A DNA stretch of 47,248 bases, filler included, from Catajapyx aquilonaris (Eukaryota): assembly GCA_000934665.2 (NCBI GenBank). It is 2 parts of 2 records of this genome, joined end to end, with 100 filler letters (N's around TTAATTAATTAA, not from the genome) between each part and the next. Parts side by side here need not be neighbours in the genome. Positions count along the whole stretch, not along the records: positions 23,583 to 47,248 come from JYFJ02005673.1; 1 more part is not named here. One strand, 5' to 3'. The position numbers and the translations under genes were made by a program. Shown piece after piece: positions 2,877-47,248 of this stretch (the stretch's first letter is position 1; every line of letters starts with the position of its first letter). The notes below the pieces were generated by a model. It saw only the letters and a program-made list of their open reading frames with translations, ran no database searches and was not told the origin of the DNA.

Positions 2877-15222
<12,346 letters not shown>

Positions 15223-15381
15223 AATTGCACGTGTTAAAATGGGAGAGATCGCTTATTGTTTATCTGACTGCAGCTGCGTAAATAGTTATCATTAGCACAA
15301 GTAAATAATGCATGTCCATACGCAACTACGGCCATGACTTGAATCACAGCTACGCCTACATGGCCAGCAATCTAACGTTCG

Positions 15382-17726: not shown

Positions 17727-20700
17727 ATGAGTAACAGAAAATTTTCTGGGGGGAAAATATCTTTGGGAAAGTTACGAGGTAAGCCACACTTATGATTACT
17801 TTGCAAGTGAATTTTTGGAAGCCAATAGCGCATGCTAGCTTGAAAATTTGTTGTTGTCAAGTTGGCCTGCACCCAACAGTACCTGCATTTATTTGTATTC
17901 TGTAACTTAAGAAATGTAGCCAATATTTTTGTTCAATAATTTAAAATGATTGCGATGAGCTCCTGTTTTGTGTTGAAGAACCTCTCTAACCTAAGCTAGA
18001 TTTGCTGATTTATTCACTTGCATCAATTATGTTGTTGTTAGCAGTGTTTTAATGAGCCATTATCTCCTAGACATGTTGTCATAGCTATGGCCATGGATTT
18101 ACTTCACTGTCATTAACACATATAACTTATGGCCTGTACCAACTGATATCTATTACCATCTATTATCACTAATTAATTACCGGTGTGTAGTGAAAGGGGA
18201 AGCTATTGGACAGGTGTTTTTTTTTTAAACTTCAAATAACCTTTTAAGTATTCCACATGTAAACTGCATTGGTGGTAGTAGTAGCTTGCATGATTTCATT
18301 ACTAACATCAGGAATCCATAGGATAAACTGTTGCTAGCATTACTTTCAAGATGCCATCATCATAGAAGTTTTGTTGATGTAGTCCCACATTTCACCACTG
18401 ACTGACTTGTGTCAGCTCATTGCTGCGTGATGTTTTGATGTTGCTGAACAAGGCAGCATCTATATTACTTTTATGAGGTCAAACCCTTGTAAGCTGATAA
18501 ATCCATGACCTCCATGATCCATGACTATGAGAAATGTTAGAAACCTCGATATAGTGGCTCCCAATGTATTGACCCTCTTGAGTCAGTGATTTTCTCTTTT
18601 TAAGGCAAATCTGCCGTAACATCTGTTCCAACATTTTGCTTCACACCTGGAAATGAGGATTTGAAAGAACTTCCACCAGAAACTAGCAGCAAGGAAGAGG
18701 AGAGTGATATCAAAGAAGGTACATTGAGTGACTGAAAATTCTCTTGTTTTGTGGACGTATCAGTGTGTATTTTTTTTTGCCTGTCACTTATTAATATTTT
18801 CCTGTTTGTTCTGGCTTGTGTTAGGGGTGGATTTTCTTTGATTTAGGTTCTTTAGCTTTGTGTTATGTATGGTTATTTTGCTTATCTTAGTGTAATATGT
18901 GAAGATAGGTTTTTTTCAGAAGCAAAAAAGTGTGTTGAATTGTTATGTCTGAATGTGGCAATGTTTGTTGTGTTACGATCAGGTACAAATACGAAGGTAC
19001 AACAAAAATGAAACTGATGCAAGCAAATAGATGTTAATGGGGAGCTGGAATTTTGAAACGTAGCACACAGCTCAAAAGGCACAAGCAGCTGTTAAACAGG
19101 TCCATCCAGCTGTCCTAGTTTGATTTTTAAAGTTATTAATATGCTGATCCTAGTCTTTAATCCCCATATTGGACATGCTACATCCTATTATTCCTATTAT
19201 TATCAAAACACTCCAGAAGTATTTTTGGGTATAAAGACAAACTAATATTATTAACCTAAGCGGATGCAAATGTAAATTAAGCAAATAAGAACAAAACTGC
19301 TTAAAGTTCAGTAGGCTGTATCCTGCTTCAAATATAATCTTTTTGAAAGCATATTAAATTAATCTGTGGGTACCCTTTGAGAAATATTAGATTTTCCTAT
19401 CAGAATGAAAGAGGTGCATATCAACTCCTTAAAATATTGCCATGATCATGACCATGGCAGTAGCCAGGGGGGGGGGGGGGNNNNNNNNNNNNNNNNNNNN
19501 NNNNNNNNNNNNNNNNNNNNNNNNNNNNNNNNNNNNNNNNNNNNNNNNNNNNNNNNNNNNNNNNNNNNNNNNNNNNNNNNNNNNNNNNNNNNNNNNNNNN
19601 NNNNNNNNNNNNNNNNNNNNNNNNNNNNNNNNNNNNNNNNNNNNNNNNNNNNNNNNNNNNNNNNNNNNNNNNNNNNNNNNNNNNNNNNNNNNNNNNNNNN
19701 NNNNNNNNNNNNNNNNNNNNNNNNNNNNNNNNNNNNNNNNNNCCCCCCCCCCTCCTCCCCCCAACCTAAATCCTGGCTACGCCCATGATTTAGACCCAGT
19801 CTTTAGCAGTTGAACCTGAACTATGATGTGCTCTGCAATAGTGCATTTCCACCACTACTTCATAGTACAATACTGTGAGGAAATAAGGCTTGTAATATGA
19901 TTTTGTAAATTTTGCAAAAACTCTCCTGATTCACGTAAGTGATATTAGCCTAGGGCATTATTTGCAACTTTAAAGTGAAAACTGTGCAGGATGGCTGAGT
20001 CTCAGGGATCAATAAATTACTGTCATGGTACTTCAAATAGTAGCTTACAGTCCCATGATCATAGAGAATCGCCTAAGGGTGGATTATATAATGGAAACAG
20101 GTTATTTCTGTAATTTTCCCCTATTTCATATTCTCTTTTTTTTGCATGATGGCCTTGAATGGCCCTGGTTTTTAATGCTATGGGGAAATTACACTGACCT
20201 TCACTATCCTTATTGCAGAGGGAGGAAAAGCTTCTGAAAGAGTGGAATGTGAACCTGGGACATCAGCCATGTTAGAATTGTTTCACGTCCCCCACGATTT
20301 GGACTGCACTACGGATGTGGCTCCAGCATGTACAGGTATACTGGGTTCTTCACCCATCAAAGAATCTCTGCAGAAGACGGGGAAGCGATCATCCAGTTTA
20401 GACAGCGCAAGTTCAGCAACCACATCGACTGACACTTGGAATGTCTTTCTGCATGAGATCAAGGGAAAAATCACAAGGAAGGTGGAGAAACTAGGGGATA
20501 GGCGCACAAAGATTAGGAGCATAAGCGAAACCAAAGAGTCTGTGAGTGTGAGTGATACTGAAGAGTATTTGGACAATTCAGGCCCAAGCAAATCAGAGGC
20601 AAGGAGTGAAAGCAAAGAGTTAGAAGACTTGCCTCACATTTTACCTCACGTTTGCACAGCAAGCGGGGAGCTCTTTAGTGCAGGGGAAGAGTTGAAAGGT

Positions 20701-23200
20701 GGGAAAACAAAGCAGCCAACGGGATTTTTAGCCAACCTTATCACATCTGAGCAATCACTCCAGGACCGTATTAGGCCAAAATTAGCTGACCTAAGAAACC
20801 TGCGCAGGATTCCATCAGGAGACTTTGTGATTCCCATGTCCACTTTGACTTCAGAGGAAGCTGCTTCAAGTGCATTGCCTGCCAAGTCGGAGGAAGTGGA
20901 GTCAGGAGTCGAGGCTGAGGAGGCCCTCTCAGTGGACACCCGAGCTGACTCCCAAGTCCTTAAACCAACATTGCCAATTCCTCACCAGCCTGAAACCAAA
21001 AGCCAGAGCACTGCCATGTCACTGTTGTCCTGTGTGATGTGGGTCAACCCCTTGTACTTGATTAGCACCATAGTTGTACTTTTCCTGCTGCCCATGTCTC
21101 CCTTCCTCATGGGCTTCTTGCTTGGAGGTGCTTTAATGGCGCTAGCTTTTGGAATCCTGTACATATTCACGAAGCCTCAGCGTGTGAAAGGGCTGCTGAT
21201 ACCAGACTACAGCAAGCTACCACCTCTGGAAAATTTAGTTAAGGAATATGCTCCTCTGGAGAGATATGAGGTAAGGATGAAAGGTAAATGCATTGGTACT
21301 TGTAATTAGAGTATGGCCCATATAGAGCCCATAAGACCCATGTGATGACCTTTTGGGGTTGTCGTTGTCCAGTTAGTAGGTTGCGGTTTTTTTAAGCATG
21401 TTTAGACTACATTCCATCATCAGGTCAAGCATCTTTCCAGGAGCAGCATCAGGATTTTAGGAAGAGGCCAAAGGGAAAATTTGATGCTGGGAGGGAGGGG
21501 TAAGAAAAAACAGTGGCCAGAAAACAGCTAGACCAGAAAAAAGGTGCAGAAAGTAACATTTGGATATCGTGGAAGTGAACCAAGGCCTATGCAAAGTGCT
21601 AAAAAGTACCCGGTTTTACCTTTTTTGAGCTGAACAGGACAGTTCTCGAGATGGAGACATGTGCTTAGTTGCATCTGACTTGATCATTAATGGTAATTAA
21701 AGTATCAGCAAAAATTAAGCTTCTCATACGTTCAAAAATATTGTTAGAACATCATTTGGAATGGCTCTTTTCTGATATCCAAGGATTGGTCAGGGAAGTG
21801 TTTATTATGTATACAGGTTGAGGTCAATCTGCATTTCAATTAAATCCTATGTCAGTTGTGGGATTGGTGAATCCTCTGGTAGAGGAGGTCATTATGTACC
21901 TATATCTCAAAGGACCTACTAGAAATATTCCACATTATGCTGCATCTAAAAGTGTGACCTGATACTGAGTGTGTCATGCATACTAATTTGGGAATTTCTG
22001 CTTTGGGTGTAGCCTTTTTGAGTTTTAATTAAATTGAATTATTTCTTATTCATTATTATTTATAAAGGTATAGTGCTTACCTCAGAGAGGTCTTGCACTG
22101 ACTTTGATTATTATACCATACATATTGAAACCTTTTTGTGAAGCCATGGTTGATTATTACAATAGAGCTCCTCATCTGAAACACATCTTGACACTTGCGC
22201 AGGAGTTCTTCAAAAAGAGAAATCTTTGCTTTCATTGCCTTAAATTGCTGATAAAATACTAACTGAACAAATTGTAAATTTGACTGAAATGAACTCGAAT
22301 TTCATGAGTAAAAATATTATTGCAGGTTTGTTTTCATATCGCAGAAGTGTTGACAATTAAAGTTACAAGGTATAACTGTTTTTCATGCGTGACTTTGGGT
22401 GCACTATGGTAGTGTCATGCTGTCATTATCTCATAACATTCCAGAATACTATCTCTCATTTCATGACCAGTCATCTCCATTTTTTGCTCATGATAGTACA
22501 TGCGAATTAAAGGAAACATAAATAATTAAATTGTGATTTTTTTGTCAATTACAGGGATGGATGAATGAACTCTTAAGTGAGTATGATCCACAAACATTTC
22601 ACATCCGGCAAACATATTCAGTGTTTGTTCGCCTGGAGGGTTCAATCATTCGCCTATCATATCCTCGTAAAGGAGTACCAAGGAGGGCAATGTGGAATGA
22701 ACCAAAAGTCAACCCTTATTTTATACATCAGAAAATGTATGACCTCTCGGATTGTGAAGTCCGACTCTTACCTGAAGGACTGTCACTCTTCAGGTTGGTA
22801 TGCTTTGTTAGTTTCTGTGACTGGAGTTATCAACTTTGCATTTCAGGCGTTGGCGGAAAAAATATCCAATTATTATTAAACTTCACAAGACATCAGACTT
22901 GAGCTTGTCGTCGAAAATTCTCCCCAAGAATGATCCATCGCCAACATTGTCAAGGTCATCTGATGTCACAGACAGTACTGTGGAGAGAAAATCCCTGCTA
23001 AACAATGGTGATGTTGTCTCATTAGAGAAACAGGACTCATTAGAAGAATCAGATGCAGCTTCAATTAAAGAAAAAGATGGCAAGGATTCTGATCAGAGCT
23101 CAATGGATGAAGATGACTCATTCTTGCATGTCACACGTGAGCTCTATGAAGGTTCCACTCTAATATTTTTTGCAAGGACAGATCGTGAAAAAGATGACTG
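17727..23200 (+). CDS. TEX2: Testis-expressed protein 2-like (TEX2/Nvj2 family ER lipid-transfer protein), 5' part only, truncated by the assembly join
   Basis: Exons 17727-17778, 18605-18718, 20219-21270, 22555-22793, 22847-23200 splice in frame. N-terminal GKSAVTSVP motif, long Ser/Glu-rich region, two TM helices (LYLISTIVVLFLLP; FLMGFLLGGALMALAFGILY), and PH-like motifs GWMNE..YDPQTFH..T.SVFVRLEG..IRLS.P, LLPEGL..R.W.KKYPI, FARTDREKDDW. The expected C-terminal SMP domain exons are absent from the window. Confidence 0.88.
19481..19742. other. Assembly gap inside a small TIR element in TEX2 intron 2
   Basis: 262 N between a G run and a C run, flanked by inverted ends catggcagtagccagg / cctggctacgcccatg. 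Confidence 0.85.
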
Positions 23201-23482: not shown

Positions 23483-23582
23483 NNNNNNNNNNNNNNNNNN
23501 NNNNNNNNNNNNNNNNNNNNNNNNNNTTAATTAATTAANNNNNNNNNNNNNNNNNNNNNNNNNNNNNNNNNNNNNNNNNNNN
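23483..23582. other. Artificial 100-bp contig spacer
   Basis: 44 N + TTAATTAATTAA (23527-23538, stops in all six frames) + 44 N. Genes on both sides are truncated. Confidence 0.93.
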
Positions 23583-25056
23583 AGAGGTTCCTCTTCCTGG
23601 CGGGGGTGGACACCTCCTCAGGGGTCCAGGGAGGTCATCCAGGGATGGCCAGGCTGCTCTCCAACTGCCACTTTTGCAACGGGGGTCATCCCGGGGTCGT
23701 CACTAGGGGATGGTTCGACCCTGAAAAGGAAGAAGTGATTCCATCCGGACTGGAGATATTTCCGGATTATTCCCGGAATCTGCACAATCGATTTCTCAAC
23801 GGATCATTCATGGTGGACCTGAGTAAAAACGAGCTTCAGTATTTCTTTGAAAACAAATTGCCCATGTTCCCAGAGATAATGGAACTCCTGCCCATCAGCC
23901 AGGCCATGAATTATGACTGGGTCATGGAATCCATCGAGGGGGAAGACGGGGTGCTACCGGATGTGCCTCTGCCAGACGGAAACTACACCGGAGCAACAGG
24001 AGTCATCCTCCGCAGAAAAGCAGTGTTTGGATTAACACATTGACTAAAGGTGGCATGTCCCTAGTGGTCGATATCAATTTTCCCCACGCGTTTGGCATCA
24101 TCACGTTCGTAACCAGGGCCCCTCGAGTGAGCTACACCTGGGACGCGATGCTCCGACCGTACACTCCGGACATGTGGGCGATGGTGATGGTCTCCGTAGT
24201 CTTTGGCAGCGCAGTCCTCGCCCTCCTCTTGAAGTGGAGTCCCCTCCCCCCCTTCCCTGGCCGCCCCTGGTCCTTCCCCCGCCTCCTCCTGTACTCCCTG
24301 AGGTACCTCTCCTCCACCCTGATCGAAGAGAACCCGAACCTGGTCCCCTCCACCCAACCACCCCGAATATTCATCTCCTTCTGGTGGGCCTTCTCCCTGG
24401 TCATCATCTGTGGGTACGAGGCCCTCTACTTCGGCTTCCTGGCCTCTCCCTTGATGGAGGACCTCCCGGAGACATTCAGGGAGCACCAGGAATGGCTCAA
24501 GTGGACATGGGGCACGATCGCGTTCGCCAAACCTTACATCGGCAGTGCTCTCCTGCGCCTGGAGTACTTCTCTTCAGTGGCGAGTAACCTGACAGATCAC
24601 GTGGACCTCAACACGTGTGTGCTCGAGGCCATCAACTCCGACCACTGCTGCATCGGTTCGCGCGAATTCCTGATAGCAGGAAGCTACCAGTTTGCGGACA
24701 AGGCCGGCAACCTGCAGACAAAATTTGCTAAAGAGAACGACTTGGTTGTTATCGGTGCTTTCCTGACCGAGAAGCACAGCCTAATCTCTCCGATCACATC
24801 CAGGATGAGCAAGTACATCAGAGAGTCCGGTGTCCACGAGAAGTTCCGTAGGTCATTCGATTATTCCTGTCTGGCCATGGGAATAGGTGATGCCCGAAAG
24901 AAGGACCTCCTCCTCAAGAGGCTGATGGCCCTCAATTTCACCCAGATGAGCAGTGCCTTCTATTTCCTATTAATATTCTCTTATGGGTTGGGTTTGCTCG
25001 TATTCTTTGCGGAAATCTGCACGTCACGTTCTATGCGTCATTTACTTAGGTTATGA
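23583..25056 (+). pseudogene. Divergent, intronless ionotropic receptor (IR/iGluR-like chemoreceptor), 5'-truncated, one frameshift near 24020-24045
   Basis: The frame of ORF 23606-24043 is open from the gap edge and ends in the S1 motif DGNYTGATGVILRRKAVFG. ORF 24040-25056 (another frame) continues VDINFP..ITFVTRAP, LRPYTPDMW + M1, RIFISFWWAFSLVIICGYEALYFGFLASP (M3-like), ESGVHEKF, and terminal TM ALNFTQMSSAFYFLL..GLLVFFAEI. AATAAA at 25351. Could be an intact gene with a sequencing indel. Confidence 0.8.
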
Positions 25057-30156: not shown

Positions 30157-31667
30157 AGGGACACTCCACTCAAAATACAAGTTGGGTTCTAAAAATCGGG
30201 CAAAAAATCCTGATTCCGAGGGTATAAGCAGTTTTTCTTAAGAGACGAACGGTAAGGCCAGTGTGAAAGCTGGAAGTGTGTCGTTCGAAAACCGCGCGCG
30301 GGGCGGTGGGCAACGCCACCAGAGTGGAACCGGGCGGAACTAGAGAAAGTGATGGCGCGGCCAGGGTCCCCTACATGGTTGCCTCCCCCACCCTAACTGT
30401 CTAACTCTCTAGGTGGGGGAGGCACTCATGTAGGTGACCCTGGGCGCGGCAGCGCCTCTACTTCTCCGGTTTTCCGCGGGATGGTGCTGTATCGCCCTTC
30501 TTAGCAGACGACGTGTGTAGATATATTATTTTCCGTGTTACCGTTGGCATATTGGCAAACCCCAAGTGGTCCCCGCAACCGGCCCTAATCCAGCCCTCCC
30601 ATTGGCTGCATCGGGTCCGTGACGTCACGGACTCTCGTGACGTCATGTACTCGCGTGCAGCCAGTGAAAGGCCGGAACGGCGGAATGAGGAACAATTGAA
30701 TACCGTAAATGATATAAATTGTCATGTAATTATTTTTATTAATAAAAAAAATACGTTCTGCTACCTGCAAACCTTTATTACCTCCAAAATTAATTGCCCA
30801 TTGGAATGGCGAGTTCCTATTGGCTCGCACACGGGTAGACGGGGGGGAAAAATATCAAAAAAAAAAAAAAAAACTGGCGCCGATTTGACGGGGAAGAGGG
30901 AAGAATCAGCCTAATGCTGCTTCACATTGAAATGAAAGAATTTCTCAGTTTGTTTTTGGTATTCTCTATGTGATGCATGCATTTATATTTGATGGAATAA
31001 TTACCTTAAAGGTCGGTACTAAAGGGAATAAGAAAGGGTTGTATACTTTAAGGGTCTTAGGCATTACTATTATCTGGGTTGTGAACTAGTTGTTTATTCC
31101 ACCTGTCATACCAGCATTTTGTGGAAAAAATGATTGGGGCCAGCAGGTGTTTAATATCATAAGGCACTAATAAATGTGACAGGTAATAGTAAATATCTTA
31201 CACTAATGTTTGTTCATCAATAAAAACTTTCATTTGTCTAATATCGTGTTTCCCCCTGCCCCAAGCTTTGTTGCAGCTGTTACAACTCTCGTTACAGCTA
31301 TCAATTGTTGATCAATGCATACTATGCCTGTTTTAAATGATGCCTTTTTATTAGTTTTATCACCTCTTAACTGCGCTTCTCACTCGACCTTGACATTGCA
31401 CACTGCAAAAGTATCTTTTAAAAAAGGTACGAGCAATGCTCACCTGTTCGACATGCAAAGGGATGACGTCACGCAACCATGACGTCACATTGAGCTCCCC
31501 CCTACGTCGTGAATGAGCGTGACGTCACGGACCCGATGCAGCCAATGGGAGGGCTGGATTAGGGCCGGTTGCGGGGACCACTTGGGGTTTGCCAATATGC
31601 TTACCGTTGGGCGTAGGAAAAAACCGATTGCACATTCGGAATCAGCATTTTTGAGTGGAGTGTCCCT
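30157..31667. mobile_element. Kolobok-like non-autonomous DNA transposon, copy A
   Basis: TTAA-AGGGACACTCCACTCAAAA...TTTTGAGTGGAGTGTCCCT-TTAA (TTAA target, AG..CT termini). Confidence 0.85.
30547..31600. mobile_element. Mutator-like (MULE) non-autonomous element nested in Kolobok copy A
   Basis: Perfect 83-bp TIRs (30547-30629 / 31518-31600) and 9-bp TSD TTACCGTTG. The empty site is visible in copy B near 32283. Confidence 0.9.
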
Positions 31668-32613: not shown

Positions 32614-32710
32614 GACAATTTATTCCGAAGACCAGAAGAGGCCAACCCTGCTGGTACTTGACCAACGGCAACCGGATTGAGGGACTAACTATAAGGCCTT
32701 CAACGACGCC
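32614..32710 (+). pseudogene. Decayed third FPPS-like copy (exon-3 remnant)
   Basis: aagaccagaagaggccaaccctgctggtacttgaccaacgg...aaggccttcaacgacgcc encodes [14 protein letters not shown] then, after an insertion and frameshift, KAFNDA, matching exon 3 of the two full-length copies. The DDxxD upstream is destroyed. Confidence 0.8.
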
Positions 32711-33557
32711 ACAATCATCCTTCGTACAGCATTACCAACATACTCTCGAATGAGGTAAGACAATTTTTTCCGAAGCAAGGGAGCCGACGAAATCCCCTGT
32801 TCTTATATGCCGGTTGAGCAACTCTTATTATTTGTGAAAATTATTGTGTCAGCAATTTTCATACGTTATCGATTAGCACAACTTGCTGGCGTGCAATTCT
32901 ACCAGCAATAAATCGCATGATTGCCATGGATGTATCGTATATTGGAATTCATTGCCTCATTGTAACCTTGATATTTCTCCCCCCCCCCCCAAAAAAAAAA
33001 AACATACGGCACAAAAACCAGTTATAATCAAGGTGAGGTGCACTTGAGGTCAGATGTGACCAAAACACGTTGCACTTTGCAGGTTATATGCAACGATTTA
33101 AATTGACAGGGAGATAGTACTTCTTTGAGATTTACTTCATGCCGATTATTATTGCGATATACTGACTGTGCTGAAGCTGACATACAGTATAGGCTTAGAG
33201 CTACAAGGTGTTTCCTTCTTTGGAACAGGTAACTAGAAAATAATACTGGCCAATTATGTCTCTCAAGTATAGCCAAAGTCTAGAAGGTCCAGAAATGTGT
33301 TGCCTCTATTAAAATTCCAGCCATAGCATTTTTACAGGATATTGAACAAAAGAGCATTAATAAGAGTGAATGCTTCCATTCAGACTACCCAAGTCACCAA
33401 ATAATATTGATGTGATTATCTTTGACTGTTACAAAATCGCCACTCAATTATAAGCAGATTAGTGCAGGAATTTTTAAGGGCAAGAGAAGCTTTAATAATT
33501 ATTATTGGAACTCTGATTGCCGATAATGATCATTTTGATATTCAAATATGCTTATAA

Positions 33558-38717: not shown

Positions 38718-40725
38718 ATGGGTGCTAAGAACAGCGACAGGAACGCTTTCTTGGCGCTGACCTCCGAGGTCATCCAGGACCTGACCTCCTCTGGAACCGA
38801 TGACGAGGGCTTGCGGGAATTCGACACCTGGTACAAAAAGGCCCGGACATGAATATTACTGCCCGGATTGTTAGCTAACATGCTGCAAGTATGTAGTAGC
38901 GCTCCTCACATTGTTGTCACTGAAGGTGCTGGACTACAACCTTCTAGGAGGGAAGCTGACCCGAGGCACGATGGTGGCCAAGTCGTTTTCCATCCTGGCA
39001 GAGGAGGAGGATGTCACCGAAGAGAACGTCAGGTTGGCTCACCTCATGGGATGGTGCATAGAGCTGGTGAGTTTCGGTATATACAAATAATGATATTGCC
39101 TGCCCCATCAGGAAGACTTGGTGTGAAGTGACTTTGTGCATGTTACCACACAGCTTCAGGCAGCATGTTTGCTGGCGGACGACGTGATGGACAATTCCAA
39201 GATCAGAAGAGGTCAGCCATGCTGGTACCTGACCAACGGGTTGGGGTCAAAGGCCTTCAACGACGCCTTGCTGATGGAAAGGGCCGCATTCCACATCTTC
39301 TGGAAACACCACAGAGACCAGACCTACTACACCAAGTGCATCGATCTTATTAGCGAAGTAATACTCCAATGACGATTTACCATTGAAATTCATTCTCTCT
39401 TCAAATGTGAATCGGTGGAATGAATAGGTCCAATACCTTCAGCTCACAGCTCACAGTTGCGGTTGGTACAGGTAGCAGGTGGACCCAATAACCATAGGAC
39501 GCCATTCTTGGGGTGTAATGGCCTAATTATTTTTAAAACACTTCATTTTAGCGAGAAAAATAATAGCCAAGAAAGTGAAGAATTTCTTGTCCGGGGAACT
39601 CATCCCATAAAAATAAGGCTGCAAATTGGCAGATAGGTGAAGGAACTGTTCAAGGGATTTTTAACATTTTTCCCAAATTCCTAGCCGAAAATACTTTCAA
39701 GTACAGCAATATTTCTGTGCGATTAAGGAGTGTCACTCTTTTTGTTAAGCGTTCCTCGGCATCTCAGAAAAATGTGTATTATTAAAAACTATTTTCTTCT
39801 GAAGGTGATATTCAAAACGGAGAAGGGTCAGGCCCTGGACCTTCTCACATCATCCGGAAGCAGGCCCCAGTACGACCTGTTCACAGAAGAGAGATACGCA
39901 ACAATAGTCAAGTACAAGACCTCCTACTACTCCTTCTGTCTTCCCGTGGCACTCGCAATGATAATGGTTAGTTGTACTGGCAACCTTCCTTGATAATATA
40001 ACAAAGGTAGAAACAATAGTGTGCACTGGCGTTAATGACTAAAAATGAAACGTGGTGCAGCCTTGGTGCAACCAAATTAATCACCACAATGTAACGAATA
40101 ATTACAATATATAGAATGATTTCATTCTTTGCAATGACACATCATGTGAAAGACCAATTACTAATTCCGTAACTGACTCTTCGTAATAATTTATATCCTA
40201 TGTAATACGAATTTGACCTTCACCGCAGGCAGGCGTGCACGACCAGGACCTTCACTCTGAGGCGGAAGGAGTCCTCTTGAAGATCGGTCACCTCTTCCAA
40301 GTCCAGGACGACTACCTGGACTGCTTCGGTGACCCAGAGGTCATTGGGAAGGTGGGGACGGACATCGAGGAGGGGAAGTGCTCCTGGCTGGTGGTCACCG
40401 CACTCAAGCACGCGGGTCAGGACCAGAGGATGCTCCTGGAGGTAGTACATCAGTAACATGCTCCTTGACAAGATGGCTCCTGGAAACACTCGTCAGCATC
40501 AAATTAATCTCCTTCCCATTTCAGGAGTGCTACGGATCAGAGGACCCAGAGCACGTGTCCCGAGTGAAGGGTATGTACAGGGACCTGGGTCTTCCAGAGA
40601 TGTACAGGGAGTTCGAAGATGACTGCAGGAACTCGATCCTGAAGGAAATATCCTACATGAAGAATCCGAATATGAGGGGTCTCCGCACCGTCTTCCTCGA
40701 GAAAATCCTCGATAGGAAGCGATAA
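38718..40725 (+). CDS. Fpps: FPPS-like trans-isoprenyl diphosphate synthase, copy 1 (6 exons, about 347 aa)
   Basis: Exons 38718-38840, 38926-39066, 39154-39357, 39805-39966, 40229-40441, 40525-40725, all phase 0. Motifs [80 protein letters not shown]-terminal RKR. The intron-1 donor reads GC (AAG/gcccgg) rather than GT. Confidence 0.9.
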
Positions 40726-42027
40726 GAGTAGCCAAACCTGCATGCACTATACAGTATACAGGTTATAACGGGTTATAAATAGTTTGCATATACTGTACCT
40801 ATGTAAACAGGGATAGGATGCTAATGTCTTTGGAATAAGTTGTAGAATGTCTGTCTTGGGGTGGAGATGTGTCTGGAGAATATATTTACATTTGAGATGT
40901 GTTGGATGCCTGATGTTATTCGCACTAGTGGTGTCTCTCACCAATAACCGAGGGACGTCACTTCAATATACTACTCCCAATAATTATACTGAATTGATTT
41001 TTTTTACCATGGGTGTTTTTTTACCATGGGTGTTTTTTACCATGGGTGTTTCACAGCTCCCCTGAAAAAAAACAACTTCCAAGGTGAACTCCAGAGCACC
41101 AGTGGATCCCTTCACCTTTGGTCTCCTCAACCTAGTCATCGAGGAAACAAGAACATACTCTGCTCATCTCGTATTGTTATAGCATATCCTCACCTGGAAT
41201 GTTTGACAATGTCTGACTGCACACGAGGCGGATCCCAATCTATGTGCTGACTGTCTGTGCCTTGTGCAGTTGATGCCTATTCATGGCGTAGATGAAATTA
41301 AACTGCAAGGATACATTTTCACATTTTAATTGGCATGATAAAAAAGCAGAAGAAACATAAATGACGAAAAATGACCTTGAAAATGACCATGTGCGTCACA
41401 AGAGAAAATACACAGAAAACTTACTGGCTGCACTCTTCACGCCCAATGACGTTCATTCTGATTGCGTTGCGAAAAAAAAAGTGAATGCAGGCACTAATGT
41501 TCCTCTCTGCATGTGACAATACTAAAGTATATACAAGGGCGCCTACATACACCACCATGATTTTTTGGGGGGATTTATGCCTGTCCTACTGTTACTTTCA
41601 GCTGCTATAAGTGAGATAATTCCAACGGATAATTCAGTATATTGCTTACTTGTACAGTGCAAAAATATGTAGAACATAATATTCAGGCAACTTCTCATTA
41701 ATGTTGGATCGCCCTTCGCTTCAGAATTTTAATTTATTAAAATCTATCAAATAAAACAATAACAGGCTGTTAAGTGAACTTGAAAGGAACGCTTTTTTAC
41801 AACCATTTCATAATATTGTCGTTTCATTATAACTTGAATGCCACGAGTTCTCTCTGATGAATGTTTTATTACGCAAGAGTTTTGAAGATACATTCATCCA
41901 TTTCTAATATTTACTATTCGATCTTGACACCTCATCCTAGTATCCTAGTATCAATATATTATCATTAGCCCAATGTCAGTGAGATTTGTTTACACATGTA
42001 TAACGTACGATACTGTCGAGCCCGACA

Positions 42028-42710
42028 TTACAACACGCAAGTTAATGATTCAAGTAATATATTGCACCAGTATTTTGTTTCCAACCGATATGCAAGAGTG
42101 ATGCAAAAGCTCCCAACTGTTGGGATTGCGCGATAATAATCTCCCGTTCGCTCCCGCGATTCATGACCGACTGTCATACAATGTCTTTGCAATACTAGTA
42201 GGCTACGTTAGATAGGAGGTAGGATACGTAGATCATCCGGCAGAGCCGAACTGCACTGCTTGATCTTGACATCTTCGGGCCTGTGCCCCATTATATACCC
42301 TGGGTCCTTCTGTCTGATTCTTCCGCTCCAACAACAACCGACCTGCAAGCTAGTTTTATCCTTGAAAAATGATAAAGATATATAAAAACATATCATGATG
42401 AAATGGTTAGTATATATAGTGGATCAAATACGTCAGGACAACCAGATGATACCGACACTTTCTTCATGTCTCTGAATTCCTCCTGTTCTAGCTGTTGAAG
42501 TTTATTTGTGCTGTTTTTAATGCAGTATATTGACTATTTGCAAACTTGTTAGTTTATAAGTATATTATGGTGCCACGCACAATACTGCACGTGGTGAAAT
42601 ACCCAATAACTGCATATTGCAGTGTAATGCGAATGTTGATGGATTTGGATTGCGGGAGAACAGGGAACGAGAGCCCCGAGAAGACACGCTCGAAGAAGGA
42701 GAGAACCCAT
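42028..42710 (-). CDS. Putative 4-exon gene for a small Cys-rich secreted protein (about 147 aa), family not recognised
   Basis: Exons 42603-42710, 42432-42491, 42228-42360, 42028-42170 join through GT-AG introns (111, 71, 57 nt) in one open frame. N-terminus MGSLLLRACLLGALVPCSPA looks like a signal peptide. A homologous, stop-disrupted copy of the last exon lies at about 46880-47058. Confidence 0.45.
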
Positions 42711-43697
42711 TGAGAAACGCTTCTCAAATCAGATAATCCTCCGATTTTAGATGTGGACTTTAGCTGCCAATTTTCCAAGTCACATAAAATTGCATACCTC
42801 CGTAAGTATAAGTCGCTAATATGATGTGCCTCCATTAGCACCTGGGTCAAACTTACTGCTGTAGGCCCTTATAAGTTGCTTCCATATATTATTTCTGGTG
42901 CAAGGGAGGTACTAGAATGCAATATTAGTAACAATATGCGTTCTAATATTGCTCATTATTACCCTTCAATACGATATGAAATGAGAGATGGAAGGAGGCA
43001 AAAATAATACTGTATGTGGAAGTGATCAGGTTTCCAAGGAAAATATTTTGTCGGAATGCCGCATGGCAATCAAGATTATGCGCAAAAGAGGTTTTTGATT
43101 GATTATATTACTGTTATAAGGCAACTTTTACATAAGGCTAAACTTGCTCCAATGGGCCGCGGTAACAAAACCATTTTTGTTATGCTTGTTAAAAAACGGC
43201 AATTTTTTTCAACGCCTGTTTATACCATTGCTTCTCGGATTTGATTTTGAAATAATTGCATAAGATAATACTCTTTAAAGGATGGAAAATATCTCATAAT
43301 GTGCTGTAATCTATCTAAGCTATTGTCTTGCTAACCTGCCTAGCGTAAAAGAGACTCTGATATGTCACCGAGCATTAAGGATGTAATGTATTTTGTAATA
43401 CTAACATATTACCTTAGCTTTCGCATGAGAACATCAAATTTTAAAATGTTTCGAAATGATACGCTGAATTATATGAACTGCTTTGAGATATACACTGATG
43501 TTGGCTGACAGGGCCGCCCATTTTTAAGCCAGCGCGAGAATAGATCATTAGAGCGTTAGAGAAGTAGGCCTACATGTACAAATAATTGTAAGATTAAGGT
43601 AAAGACACCTGTTATGCAAGTAACGTGGCTTGACTGCTACATTTTTTAAAAAACGGACTCACTTCACCAAGCATAAATATACGTTTCCAACAGAGAG

Positions 43698-44787
43698 ATG
43701 GGTTCCAGGATCTGCGACCGGTCTGCCTTCTTGTCCCTGAGGTCAGAGGTCATTCAGGACTTGACCTCCTCAGGAAAGGACGGTCAGCAGGGATTGCGAG
43801 TCTTCGACGCCTGGTTCAGAAAGGTGGGTCAGTCCATCAGTGATGTGTCTCAGCATTTGCGCATCTAACATACCAGCTAATCACACCGCTGTGTTTCCAA
43901 GGTGCTGGACTACAACCTCCGAGGAGGGAAGCTGACCCGAGGCACGATGGTGGCCAAGTGGTTTTCCATCCTGGCAGAGAAGGAGGATGTCACAGAAGAG
44001 AACGTCAGGTTGGCTCACCTCATGGGATGGTGCATAGAGCTGGTGAGTTTCGGTATATACAAATAATGATATTGCCTGCCCCATCAGGAAGACTTGGTGT
44101 GAAGTGACTTTGTGCATGTTACCACACAGCTTCAGGCAGCATGTTTGCTGGCGGACGACGTGATGGACAATTCCAAGACCAGAAGAGGTCAGCCATGCTG
44201 GTACCTGACCAACGGGTTGGGGTCAAAGGCCTTCAACGACGCCTTGCTGATGGAGAGGGCCGCATTCCACATCTTCTGGAAACACCACAGAGACCAGACC
44301 TACTACACCAAGTGCATCGATCTTATTAACGAAGTAATACTCCAATGACGATTTACCATTGAAATTCATTCTCTTCTGACTGGCGTGAATCTGCGAAGTG
44401 AATAGGTCCGATTACTCGCATTTGTTTCACAAATTAACTGGTGGCCAAGGATGATGGGAGATTTCCTCTCTAAGGCCTCTCTCTATATATTCTCCCTATA
44501 GTCAGATATTACGTATGTGCCTATTCCACGGACTCTTGCACAGTTGCGTATTCTCCAGGTGGTACTAGTCGACCATCCCTAATAATAACCGAAGGAATGG
44601 ACTTCAAACACAATGCATAAAATATCCTGGCAGGTGTGGTTCCCTTAATTTTAGAATTCTAATTCAAAAGGTGTTTCCATAGCCATTTAAATTTAAAATA
44701 CGATGGCCAAGGTGATGGACGTGTTTTGTCCTCAACGGTCCTCGACATGGAAGATTGCATCATATAATAATGCATACGTATTTTATT

Positions 44788-44853
<66 letters not shown>

Positions 44854-46000
44854 GTTATTATTATTATGGATAACAATAGGGACTAGCGGACAACCACTCC
44901 GCCTACATCTTTAAAATAACTACTTAAAACCCTTCTACCACCCCACAAAGTCACGGTCAGGTCACGGTATATGTTAAATTTCCTCACCTTGATGAGTATT
45001 GCTTTTAAAAAGTACTGATATTTACATAGAAAAGGTTTGTCAGTGTTGTTGATCAGTTTCATTAATCATTTGAACCAAATGTGTCATTATAAACGATGTT
45101 CTTCTGAAGGGGATATTCAGGACGGAGAAGGGTCAGGCCCTGGACCTTCTCACATCATCGGGAAGCAGGCCCCAGTTTGACTTGTTTACGGAAGAGAGAT
45201 ACGCAACAATAGTCATGTACAAGACATCCTACTACTCCTTCTGTCTTCCCGTGATACTCGCAATGATAATGGTTAGTTGTACTGGCAACCTTCCTTGATA
45301 ATACGTATAACAAGGGTAGAAACAATAGAGAGCACTGACGTTAATGCCTAATTATGTGACGGTGAAGCCTTGGTATACAACCAAATTAATCAACACAATG
45401 TAACGTAAAATTATTATTATATTTTCATAATTGTTTTTACCTTTGCAATGGATACGTCATAAACAGAGCAAATTAGTATCAGAAAAGTATTCACCAGGTC
45501 GATTTCAGGCAGGCGTGCACGACCAGGACCTTCACTCTGAGGCGGAAGGAGTCCTCTTGAAGATCGGTCACCTCTTCCAAGTCCAGGACGACTACCTGGA
45601 CTGCTTCGGCGACCCAGAGGTCATTGGGAAGGTGGGGACGGACATCGAGGAGGGGAAGTGCTCCTGGCTGGTGGTCACCGCACTCAAGCACGCGGGTCAT
45701 GACCAGAGGATGCTCCTGGAGGTACATCAGTAATGCTCCTTGACAAGATGGCTCCTGGAAACACTCGTCAGCATCAAATTAATCTCCTTCCCATTTCAGG
45801 AGTGCTACGGATCAGAGGACCCAGAGCACGTGTCCCGAGTGAAGGGTCTGTACAGGGACCTCGGTCTTCCAGAGATGTACAGGGAGTTCGAAGATGACTG
45901 CAGGAACTCTATCCTGAAGGAAATATCCTACATGAATAGTCCGAACATGCGGAGACTCTGCACGGCCAGTCTCTACGATATCCTGAACAGGAAGCGATAA
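43698..46000 (+). CDS. Fpps: FPPS-like trans-isoprenyl diphosphate synthase, copy 2 (6 exons, about 348 aa)
   Basis: Exons 43698-43823, 43902-44042, 44130-44333, 45110-45271, 45509-45721, 45800-46000, all GT-AG and phase 0, no stops. Same motifs as copy 1. Confidence 0.93.
44780..44866. repeat. (TTTA)n/(TTA)n microsatellite in FPPS copy 2 intron 3
   Basis: Simple repeat run. Confidence 0.9.
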
Positions 46001-46119: not shown

Positions 46120-47058
46120 GGTTAGACCGGGTTATACGTAATTTGCATGCGGTAAGCAGGGATATAGGAGACTATAGTAGTTGGTTGGAGAATGTGCAGT
46201 GTTTCATGTAAATTAACAATAAAGATATAAAACAATTAACTTATTATTTGTTTTGCTGCCTTCTGGACGAGAATGTGATGCTGAGCCGCATGGTGCCTGT
46301 ATAATAACAAGTAAAAATTCCGTGTTGACATCTTTACAGAGTGTCGCATTAGTTCATTCTGCATGGTGTTTCGTAATTCGTTCTGAAACCTTCCGTGGTG
46401 AACTCCTGAGAGCCAGTGATTTCCTCCACCATTCAGTCTATATACTGTAGTTACCCACATAATGGACTGTCTATCATGTAGTGCAGCAGCATGTCCTGAA
46501 ATATTTGACAATGTCTGACCACACACGAGGCACGTCCCAACGCGTTCTCTGCCCGCCGCGCCTGTGCCTTGTACTATACAGGTCATGTCGATTCAAGGCC
46601 TACGTGAAACTGCACGATAACAATTTCTCATTACATGTAATGACCATGGGTTACCAAAGTAATGATAAAAAATAAAGGAACTTTTGTGGCAAGGAACATA
46701 CCCAGCAGAATTCATGCTGTACAAGTCAGTTGCGGCCCATATCTTACACACGGTGGGTATAATCTCGGCATTCTAGGCAGGGGAAGGTTATGCAACAACA
46801 GTGTCAACATATCCCCATCCTGTGCATCATAAATAAGGATAACTCCCCACGTTGTTGTGTTTTATGACCGTGTGGAAACACTGTCGAGCCAAGAATTACA
46901 ACACGGGCGTTAATGACTCAAGTTAATGGCACCAATATTTTGTTTCCAACTACTGTGCAAGAGCTCCCAGCTGTTGGGGATCTCCCGATTCATGACAGCC
47001 GACTGTTGTACAATGTCTTTGATATAATATATTATACTACGTAGTAGGTCATCCGATA

Positions 47059-47248
47059 GCATATTGGCAAACCCCAAGTGGTCCCCGCAACCGGCCCTAA
47101 TCCAGCCCTCCCATTGGCTGCATCGGGTCCGTGACGTCACGGACTCTCGTGACGTCATGTACTCGCGCGCAGCCAGTGAAAGGCCGGAACGGCGGAATGA
47201 GGAACAATTGAATACCGTAAATGATATAAATTGTCATGTAATTATTTT
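47059..47248. mobile_element. Second copy of the Mutator-like element, running off the window end
   Basis: Matches 30547-30736 almost exactly (one substitution seen). Confidence 0.92.

Follow-up and report, generated by a model that had tools for sequence, protein, structure and literature searches.

The aromatic residues found at -5 and -4 before the first Asp-rich motif (FARM) make up the floor of the allylic pocket and limit the products of eukaryotic farnesyl diphosphate synthase (FPPS; PMC7953025). Exchange of both Phe residues in an insect enzyme, MhFPPS F95M/F96S, shifted the activity to that of a geranylgeranyl diphosphate synthase (GGPPS) and not to that of a terpene synthase (TPS; PMC6140472), and the products of an avian FPPS double mutant reached chain lengths of just under C50 (PMC7887238). 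Insect TPSs of the isoprenyl diphosphate synthase (IDS) type also have non-aromatic residues at -4/-5, and the activity of one of them, MhTPS, was abolished when Phe was restored at this gate; in addition, they have lost the KKxR motif, and the conserved Cys that lies downstream of the FARM is replaced by Lys (PMC6140472). Loss of the residues that contact isopentenyl diphosphate (IPP) separates characterized insect TPSs from IDSs, with one exception (PMC10108439; PMC10962984). Characterized insect TPSs keep ~10% of these residues (PMC10108439), and in a sandfly the functional FPPS keeps 15 of 15 while the terpene synthase keeps 3 of 15 (PMC10962984).

Here we describe two tandem FPPS-like genes of Catajapyx aquilonaris (assembly GCA_000934665.2), which lie in a stretch of 47,248 nucleotides joined from parts of two records (hereafter the window), within the part taken from JYFJ02005673.1. 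Both are six-exon genes on the + strand, copy 1 at 38718-40725 (347 codons) and copy 2 at 43698-46000 (348 codons), and they are 90% identical to each other. Both encode Ala and Cys at the positions of the two aromatic gate residues. Judging from this open gate, the intact IPP site, and the retained Lys and Arg of KKxR and Cys after the FARM, a prenyltransferase that elongates past C15 is the best supported reading. We suggest tentatively, and with somewhat less than even confidence, that both genes encode active trans-prenyltransferases whose main product would be geranylgeranyl diphosphate (GGPP) or a longer chain. Both genes are new and uncharacterized, and they are an unusually clean change within the known arthropod theme of gate-altered FPPS paralogues.

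The chain-length gate and the IPP site

Seven of the nine exon translations searched matched the family PF00348 at E <= 0.01, six of them above the curated cut-off and one below it (22.7 vs 27 bits); the exons with the second Asp-rich motif (SARM) scored 79.3 and 80.2 bits against the same cut-off. The two last-exon pieces gave no Pfam match because the Pfam model stops before them. The FARM, DDVMD, is at residue 97 of copy 1 and 98 of copy 2, and the SARM, FQVQDDYLD, at residues 233 and 234, respectively, while GKVGTDI and a terminal RKR are present in both spliced products. As the FARM occupies residues 97-101 of copy 1, position -5 is Ala92 and position -4 is Cys93. Alignment with a vertebrate FPPS shows copy 1 to be free of insertions and deletions from residue 45 through to its C-terminal end, and each motif lies at the copy 1 position plus 20 when the avian/1zw5 numbering of Rebholz et al. 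(PMC10108439, Table 1), also adopted below, is applied; Ala92 and Cys93 therefore correspond to avian residues 112 and 113, the chain-length gate.

When exon 3 was searched against solved structures, the best of the 51 matched chains was 1ubv (E 1.2e-14), which reads FQAAS at 109-113 and which we take to be the avian enzyme engineered to F112A/F113S. Of the 51 matched sequences, nearly all are named farnesyl diphosphate or pyrophosphate synthase or FPS; the other names are isoprenyl diphosphate synthase (the 8a6u group), a monoterpene synthase-FDS chimera, and a bifunctional farnesyl/geranylgeranyl diphosphate synthase (9nsr). By its nearest relatives and by solved structures the pair is thus of the FPPS type and not of the GGPPS or DPPS type, but it lacks the aromatic -5/-4 residues of a canonical type-I FPPS. 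The engineered enzymes are among the closest counterparts of this combination. The avian F112A/F113S structures (presumably 1ubv, 1ubw, and 1uby) and MhFPPS F95M/F96S have small gate residues in an otherwise intact FPPS, as the pair does; they are, however, laboratory-made enzymes with known products (longer chains and GGPPS activity, respectively), whereas the pair is natural, has Cys and not Ser at -4, and is known from sequence. It is conceivable, but quite improbable in our judgment, that the pair is a natural counterpart of F112A/F113S making C25 or longer prenyl diphosphates for sesterterpenoids, higher terpenoids, or terpenoid cuticular lipids, and that the lids of the two copies, and hence their product lengths, differ. 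To our knowledge, no route to C25 or longer prenyl diphosphates on an FPPS scaffold is known from animals.

We compared the pair with 35 canonical FPPSs from arthropods, molluscs, vertebrates, a sponge, and algae, among which 121 columns are at least 80% conserved. Both copies retain 104 of these. The columns changed in both are N73T, F112A, F113C, V115L, Y154F, L157F, P165T, F174I, A216S, I245V, M249I, Y331F, P351M, and F355R/C; T125I is confined to copy 1, and K212M and K361D are confined to copy 2. Phe is present at position 112 in 30 and at position 113 in 34 of the 35 canonical enzymes, which makes the gate change the most radical one among the conserved columns.

The IPP site is, by residue comparison, that of a catalytically competent IDS. 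The 16 IPP contacts (K71, R74, E107, Q110, L114, R126, R127, T215, Y218, S219, F253, Q254, D257, K271, R365, and K367; PMC10108439, Table 1) agree with the consensus of 111 full-length relatives at 15 positions, and the remaining change, K367R, is conservative. The strict regular expressions of the same article for the IPP-binding motifs (IBMs) mostly fail, but they do so at non-contact positions (T73, C113, S216, the IBM-6 tail, and, in copy 1 alone, I125); both copies match IBM-5, and copy 2 matches IBM-3 as well. The catalytic Asp and phosphate-binding residues are complete in both copies, the Cys after the FARM is kept (PCWY), and the Lys and Arg of KKxR are kept as GKLTR.

A preliminary description of this DNA, whose limits were exact (38718 is the start of the copy 1 ATG and 46000 the final base of the copy 2 stop codon), had called attention to the same features. 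Its Ala/Cys at -5/-4 and its motifs (GKxxR, RRG, GQxxD, KT, DDYLD, GTDI, and the terminal RKR) are all present in both spliced products, and its general rule, that aromatic gate residues stop elongation at C15, that small ones give longer products, and that such substitutions also occur in insect TPSs, is backed by the literature (PMC7953025; PMC6140472). It had also singled out a Lys before GQALD and the reading AFNDA in place of AINDA. The Lys is indeed exceptional: both copies read TEKGQ (region of 39811-39813 and 45116-45118), and none of the 111 full-length relatives has Lys at this position, where hydrophobic residues dominate. Helix periodicity suggests that this Lys probably faces away from the pocket. 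The Phe of AFNDA is present, but we rejected it as a peculiarity, since 17 of the 111 relatives have Phe there.

In the mechanism that we propose, both proteins would be homodimer-type trans-isoprenyl diphosphate synthases on an FPPS scaffold. The allylic diphosphate would be held by the FARM and SARM with Mg2+, and IPP would be held in the unchanged IPP pocket. With Ala/Cys at the floor of the elongation pocket, in place of the Phe/Phe of the avian enzyme (F112/F113), condensation would continue past C15. The resulting GGPP (C20) or longer prenyl diphosphate would feed a specialized pathway and not the housekeeping, sterol-free isoprenoid supply.

An IDS-derived TPS, or a bifunctional IDS/TPS, would use the same open pocket in a different way, folding the tail of farnesyl diphosphate (FPP) or GGPP for ionization-dependent cyclization or elimination to give a pheromone or defence terpene. 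The non-aromatic -4/-5 positions of the pair are those of insect IDS-type TPSs, including the gate at which MhTPS could not tolerate Phe (PMC6140472), and tandem duplication is typical of specialized metabolism. Like MhTPS, PsTPS1, and LlTPS, the pair is FPPS-derived, stands on a long branch off canonical FPPS, and arose by lineage-specific duplication. Those three enzymes have, however, lost most of their IPP-binding residues, LlTPS keeping 3 of 15 (PMC10962984), while the pair retains them (15 of 16, vs the ~10% of characterized insect TPSs given in PMC10108439) and has none of the disruptive substitutions in several IPP-binding motifs that mark insect TPSs. The Cys is not replaced by Lys, nor is KKxR lost: PCWY and GKLTRG are IDS states according to PMC6140472, in which the Phe-to-Met/Ser swap in MhFPPS likewise yielded GGPPS and not TPS activity. 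We therefore consider terpene synthesis by the pair unlikely, though a credible reading, and agree with the preliminary description that the retained IPP motifs favour an IDS over a pure TPS.

Enlargement of the pocket could also have left the chain length short. The pair might make FPP, or geranyl diphosphate (GPP) and FPP, with a pocket enlarged for bulkier homologous substrates or for altered kinetics, as FPPS paralogues of Lepidoptera and aphids do. Lepidopteran FPPSs, which have smaller or non-aromatic residues in the gate region, are linked to ethyl-branched substrates, aphid FPPSs with Gln at -4 make both GPP and FPP (PMC7953025), and the remainder of the active site of the pair is canonical. 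Yet both gate residues are small in the pair, not one, and products were lengthened in both scaffolds that received two small gate residues (PMC6140472; PMC7887238). We find short-chain products rather improbable.

Several observations weigh against elongation past C15 by two working enzymes. V115L, L157F, and F174I could rebuild the pocket floor. Intact IPP motifs leave TPS activity possible, because a characterized leafhopper terpene synthase retains nearly all of them (PMC10108439). A separate GGPPS family exists in arthropods (PMC13143122), so the need for an extra source of GGPP is not obvious. Finally, the first intron of copy 1 opens with a GC donor (AAG/GCCCGG, the slash marking the exon end), the counterpart in copy 2 being AAG/GTGGGT. 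With these points in view, an altered-specificity IDS, as first proposed in the preliminary description, appears reasonable from the IPP contacts, the Cys, and the KKxR Lys and Arg; the catalytic activity, the product length, and the physiological role of the pair are what we infer from them.

Relatives and phylogenetic position

The pair shares with canonical type-I FPPS (avian 1fps and the arthropod enzymes) the PF00348 domain, the indel-free core length, the FARM and SARM, the IPP contacts, and most of the conserved columns given above, but differs in the gate and in overall sequence, with only 45-47% identity to the canonical enzymes listed. The arthropod FPPSs of our panel are 400-432 residues long with an N-terminal extension, while our models of the pair, at 347 and 348 residues, have no such extension and may have missed an upstream exon. 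The Lys before GQ is a further difference from canonical FPPS and its relatives.

Relatives were sought by comparing exon 3 exhaustively with 1.84 billion representatives in HMMER, a search that replaced a word-index protein search (1 match among 21 candidates) that was too insensitive. It returned 991 matches at E <= 0.001, the best being a 70-residue fragment with 56% identity, and none of the representatives matched at E <= 1e-30. The SARM exon (exon 5) matched 1338 proteins, with best alignments of about 61-70% identity, and its top matches were spread over plants, molluscs, mites, insects, and crustaceans. No close orthologue of the pair was found in these two very large protein libraries; no protein identical to those of the window was returned either, so the genes appear to be unannotated there.

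The gate was readable in 118 of 151 fetched relatives and was most often FF (48) or YF (24). Only one relative had AC, P0063, a fragment of 99 residues that is more distant from the pair than the best exon-3 match (56%). Both gate positions are non-aromatic in 12 of the 111 full-length relatives, including a millipede paralogue (Chamberlinius GAB6030999.1, SC), a protein of Albugo candida (SC), and one of the mite Dinothrombium (NA). Several of these proteins keep 14 or 15 of the 16 IPP contacts, with differences at avian positions 219 and 365/367, but they do not group with the pair in the tree. None of these proteins is known to us to have been characterized.

In the main tree (IQ-TREE, 42 rows, LG+C20 with posterior mean site frequencies, PMSF), the pair fell within a supported arthropod FPPS-type clade (98/92). 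It was not part of the clade of canonical pancrustacean FPPSs (94/94), and its stem branch measured 1.38 substitutions per site. A tree of 102 rows built with FastTree was in agreement. By the approximately unbiased (AU) test, however, a clade uniting the pair with the 10 insect sequences was not rejected (p 0.297), and we accordingly rejected a firm exclusion of the pair from the insect FPPS clade: the pair may be a paralogue of old origin or an offshoot of the insects that has evolved fast. The preliminary description had held that these are not the housekeeping FPPS and had proposed phylogeny as a check. The distance from canonical FPPS, in identity and in stem length, speaks for this view; separation from insect FPPS does not follow, since placement beside insect sequences stands unrejected.

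Gene structure, selection, and duplication

DNA identity between the copies is 88-96% in the exons and in some introns, and the pair is therefore no chance resemblance. Exon 1 of copy 1 (38718..38840, +) runs from the ATG over 41 codons to the GC donor already mentioned, and that of copy 2 (43698..43823, +) from the ATG over 42 codons. Exon 2 (38926..39066 in copy 1 and 43902..44042 in copy 2, both +) carries GGKLTRG, which is IBM-1 with avian K71 and R74; the copy 1 exon is the one with the weak Pfam match of 22.7 bits. Exon 3 contains the gate and the FARM in both copies: that of copy 1 (39154..39357, +; PF00348 E 1.2e-16) also includes SKIRRG, PCWY, and AFNDA, and that of copy 2 (44130..44333, +; E 6.6e-17) reads SKTRRG. 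Exon 4 encodes TEKGQALD followed by KYKTSYYSF (IBM-4) in copy 1 (39805..39966, +) and by MYKTSYYSF in copy 2 (45110..45271, +). The SARM and GKVGTD (IBM-5) lie in exon 5 (copy 1, 40229..40441, +, PF00348 E 3.6e-22; copy 2, 45509..45721, +, E 1.8e-22). Exon 6 encodes the C-terminal lid and ends with ILDRKR and a stop codon in copy 1 (40525..40725, +) and with ILNRKR and a stop codon in copy 2 (45800..46000, +). The introns measure 85, 87, 447, 262, and 83 bases in copy 1 and 78, 87, 776, 237, and 78 bases in copy 2; all five of copy 2 and four of the five of copy 1 are GT-AG.

Neither reading frame contains a stop codon or a frameshift. Between the copies there are 43 non-synonymous and 33 synonymous differences, a ratio of non-synonymous to synonymous divergence (dN/dS) of 0.34, and a one-sided binomial test against the neutral expectation gave p 2e-5 for the whole gene and 0.0016 when exon 1 was left out. 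Both reading frames are under purifying selection. The synonymous differences are unevenly distributed: raw synonymous divergence is ~0.5 in codons 1-40 and 326-347, where the ratios are 0.38-0.52, and about 0.07 (13 differences in 185 sites) in codons 42-325. This pattern, with its diverged gene ends (38718-38840/43698-43823 and 40660-40725/45935-46000), points to an old duplication whose core has been homogenized by gene conversion. Because the diverged, unconverted ends show ratios of 0.38-0.52, both copies have long been preserved by selection.

These data bear on whether the pair works at all. One or both copies could be catalytically idle, copy 1 as a young pseudogene with a broken intron 1 donor, or the two as non-catalytic heterodimer partners of an FPPS-type subunit. 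When all in-frame donor/acceptor pairs were enumerated for intron 1 of copy 1, no alternative GT kept the N-terminal helix; the sole in-frame GT donor near exon 1, at 38769, would remove 24 residues. In copy 2, K212M and K361D fall in columns that are 86-89% Lys in canonical FPPS, position 212 being Met there and Lys in copy 1 and 30 of the 35 canonical enzymes. A healthy-looking core may, moreover, only reflect gene conversion from the other copy, and a decayed relic upstream indicates that copies in this array do die. On the other side, GC-AG introns are a real minority class, the frames are open, purifying selection extends to the unconverted ends, and the catalytic Asp and phosphate-binding residues are complete in both copies. 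Loss of catalysis thus seems to us a doubtful explanation, of low probability.

The relic just mentioned, located ~6 kb upstream of copy 1 at 32622..32800 (+), is a frame-broken, exon-3-like FPPS sequence, with 93% agreement across 15 residues in tblastn (E 5e-7) and 89% across 47 bases in blastn. It has KAFNDA in another frame and no FARM upstream, and no further FPPS exon relic was found in the window at E <= 1. At least one further unit was therefore formerly present in the array. Two copies of a 196-base repeat, 98.5% identical, flank the FPPS region, one upstream (30541-30736) and one at the end of the window (47053-47248), and an inverted 84-base piece of it is found at 31518-31601; the repeat may represent a mobile element or mark where a segmental duplication ends.

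Other window features and significance

A biosynthetic gene cluster around the pair was considered and rejected, since the other genes of the window are an IRE1 gene, an open reading frame without a Pfam match, and a weak ligand-gated channel match. The IRE1 kinase/endoribonuclease gene has many exons and occupies about 3200-15300 (-), with Ribonuc_2-5A matches at 3229-3573 and 4687-5115 and a Pkinase match at 6767-7015. The proteins most like it are the IRE1 of cockroach and cricket, at about 55% identity across some 970-990 aligned residues, which points to an arthropod host that lacks close kin among the proteins fetched. The frame without a Pfam match has 377 codons (20176-21306, +) and is followed by more open frames up to 23201. 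The long open frame at 23917-25053 (+) matched a ligand-gated ion channel family at 26.9 bits, below the cut-off of 30.8, and may be an ionotropic-receptor-like gene. Runs of N occur at 19481-19742 and 23483-23582 and isolated N letters at 11225, 28422, and 36461, and the FPPS genes are free of them all.

Arthropod terpene chemistry, including pheromones and defence compounds, arose repeatedly from duplicated FPPS or GGPPS genes, and most of the described FPPS-derived cases are terpene synthases without IPP binding. A pair in which the condensation machinery is whole and only the chain-length gate is removed would let nature itself test the chain-length rule cleanly on the FPPS scaffold of an animal, and it could mark an unrecognized source of C20 or longer precursors in this animal.

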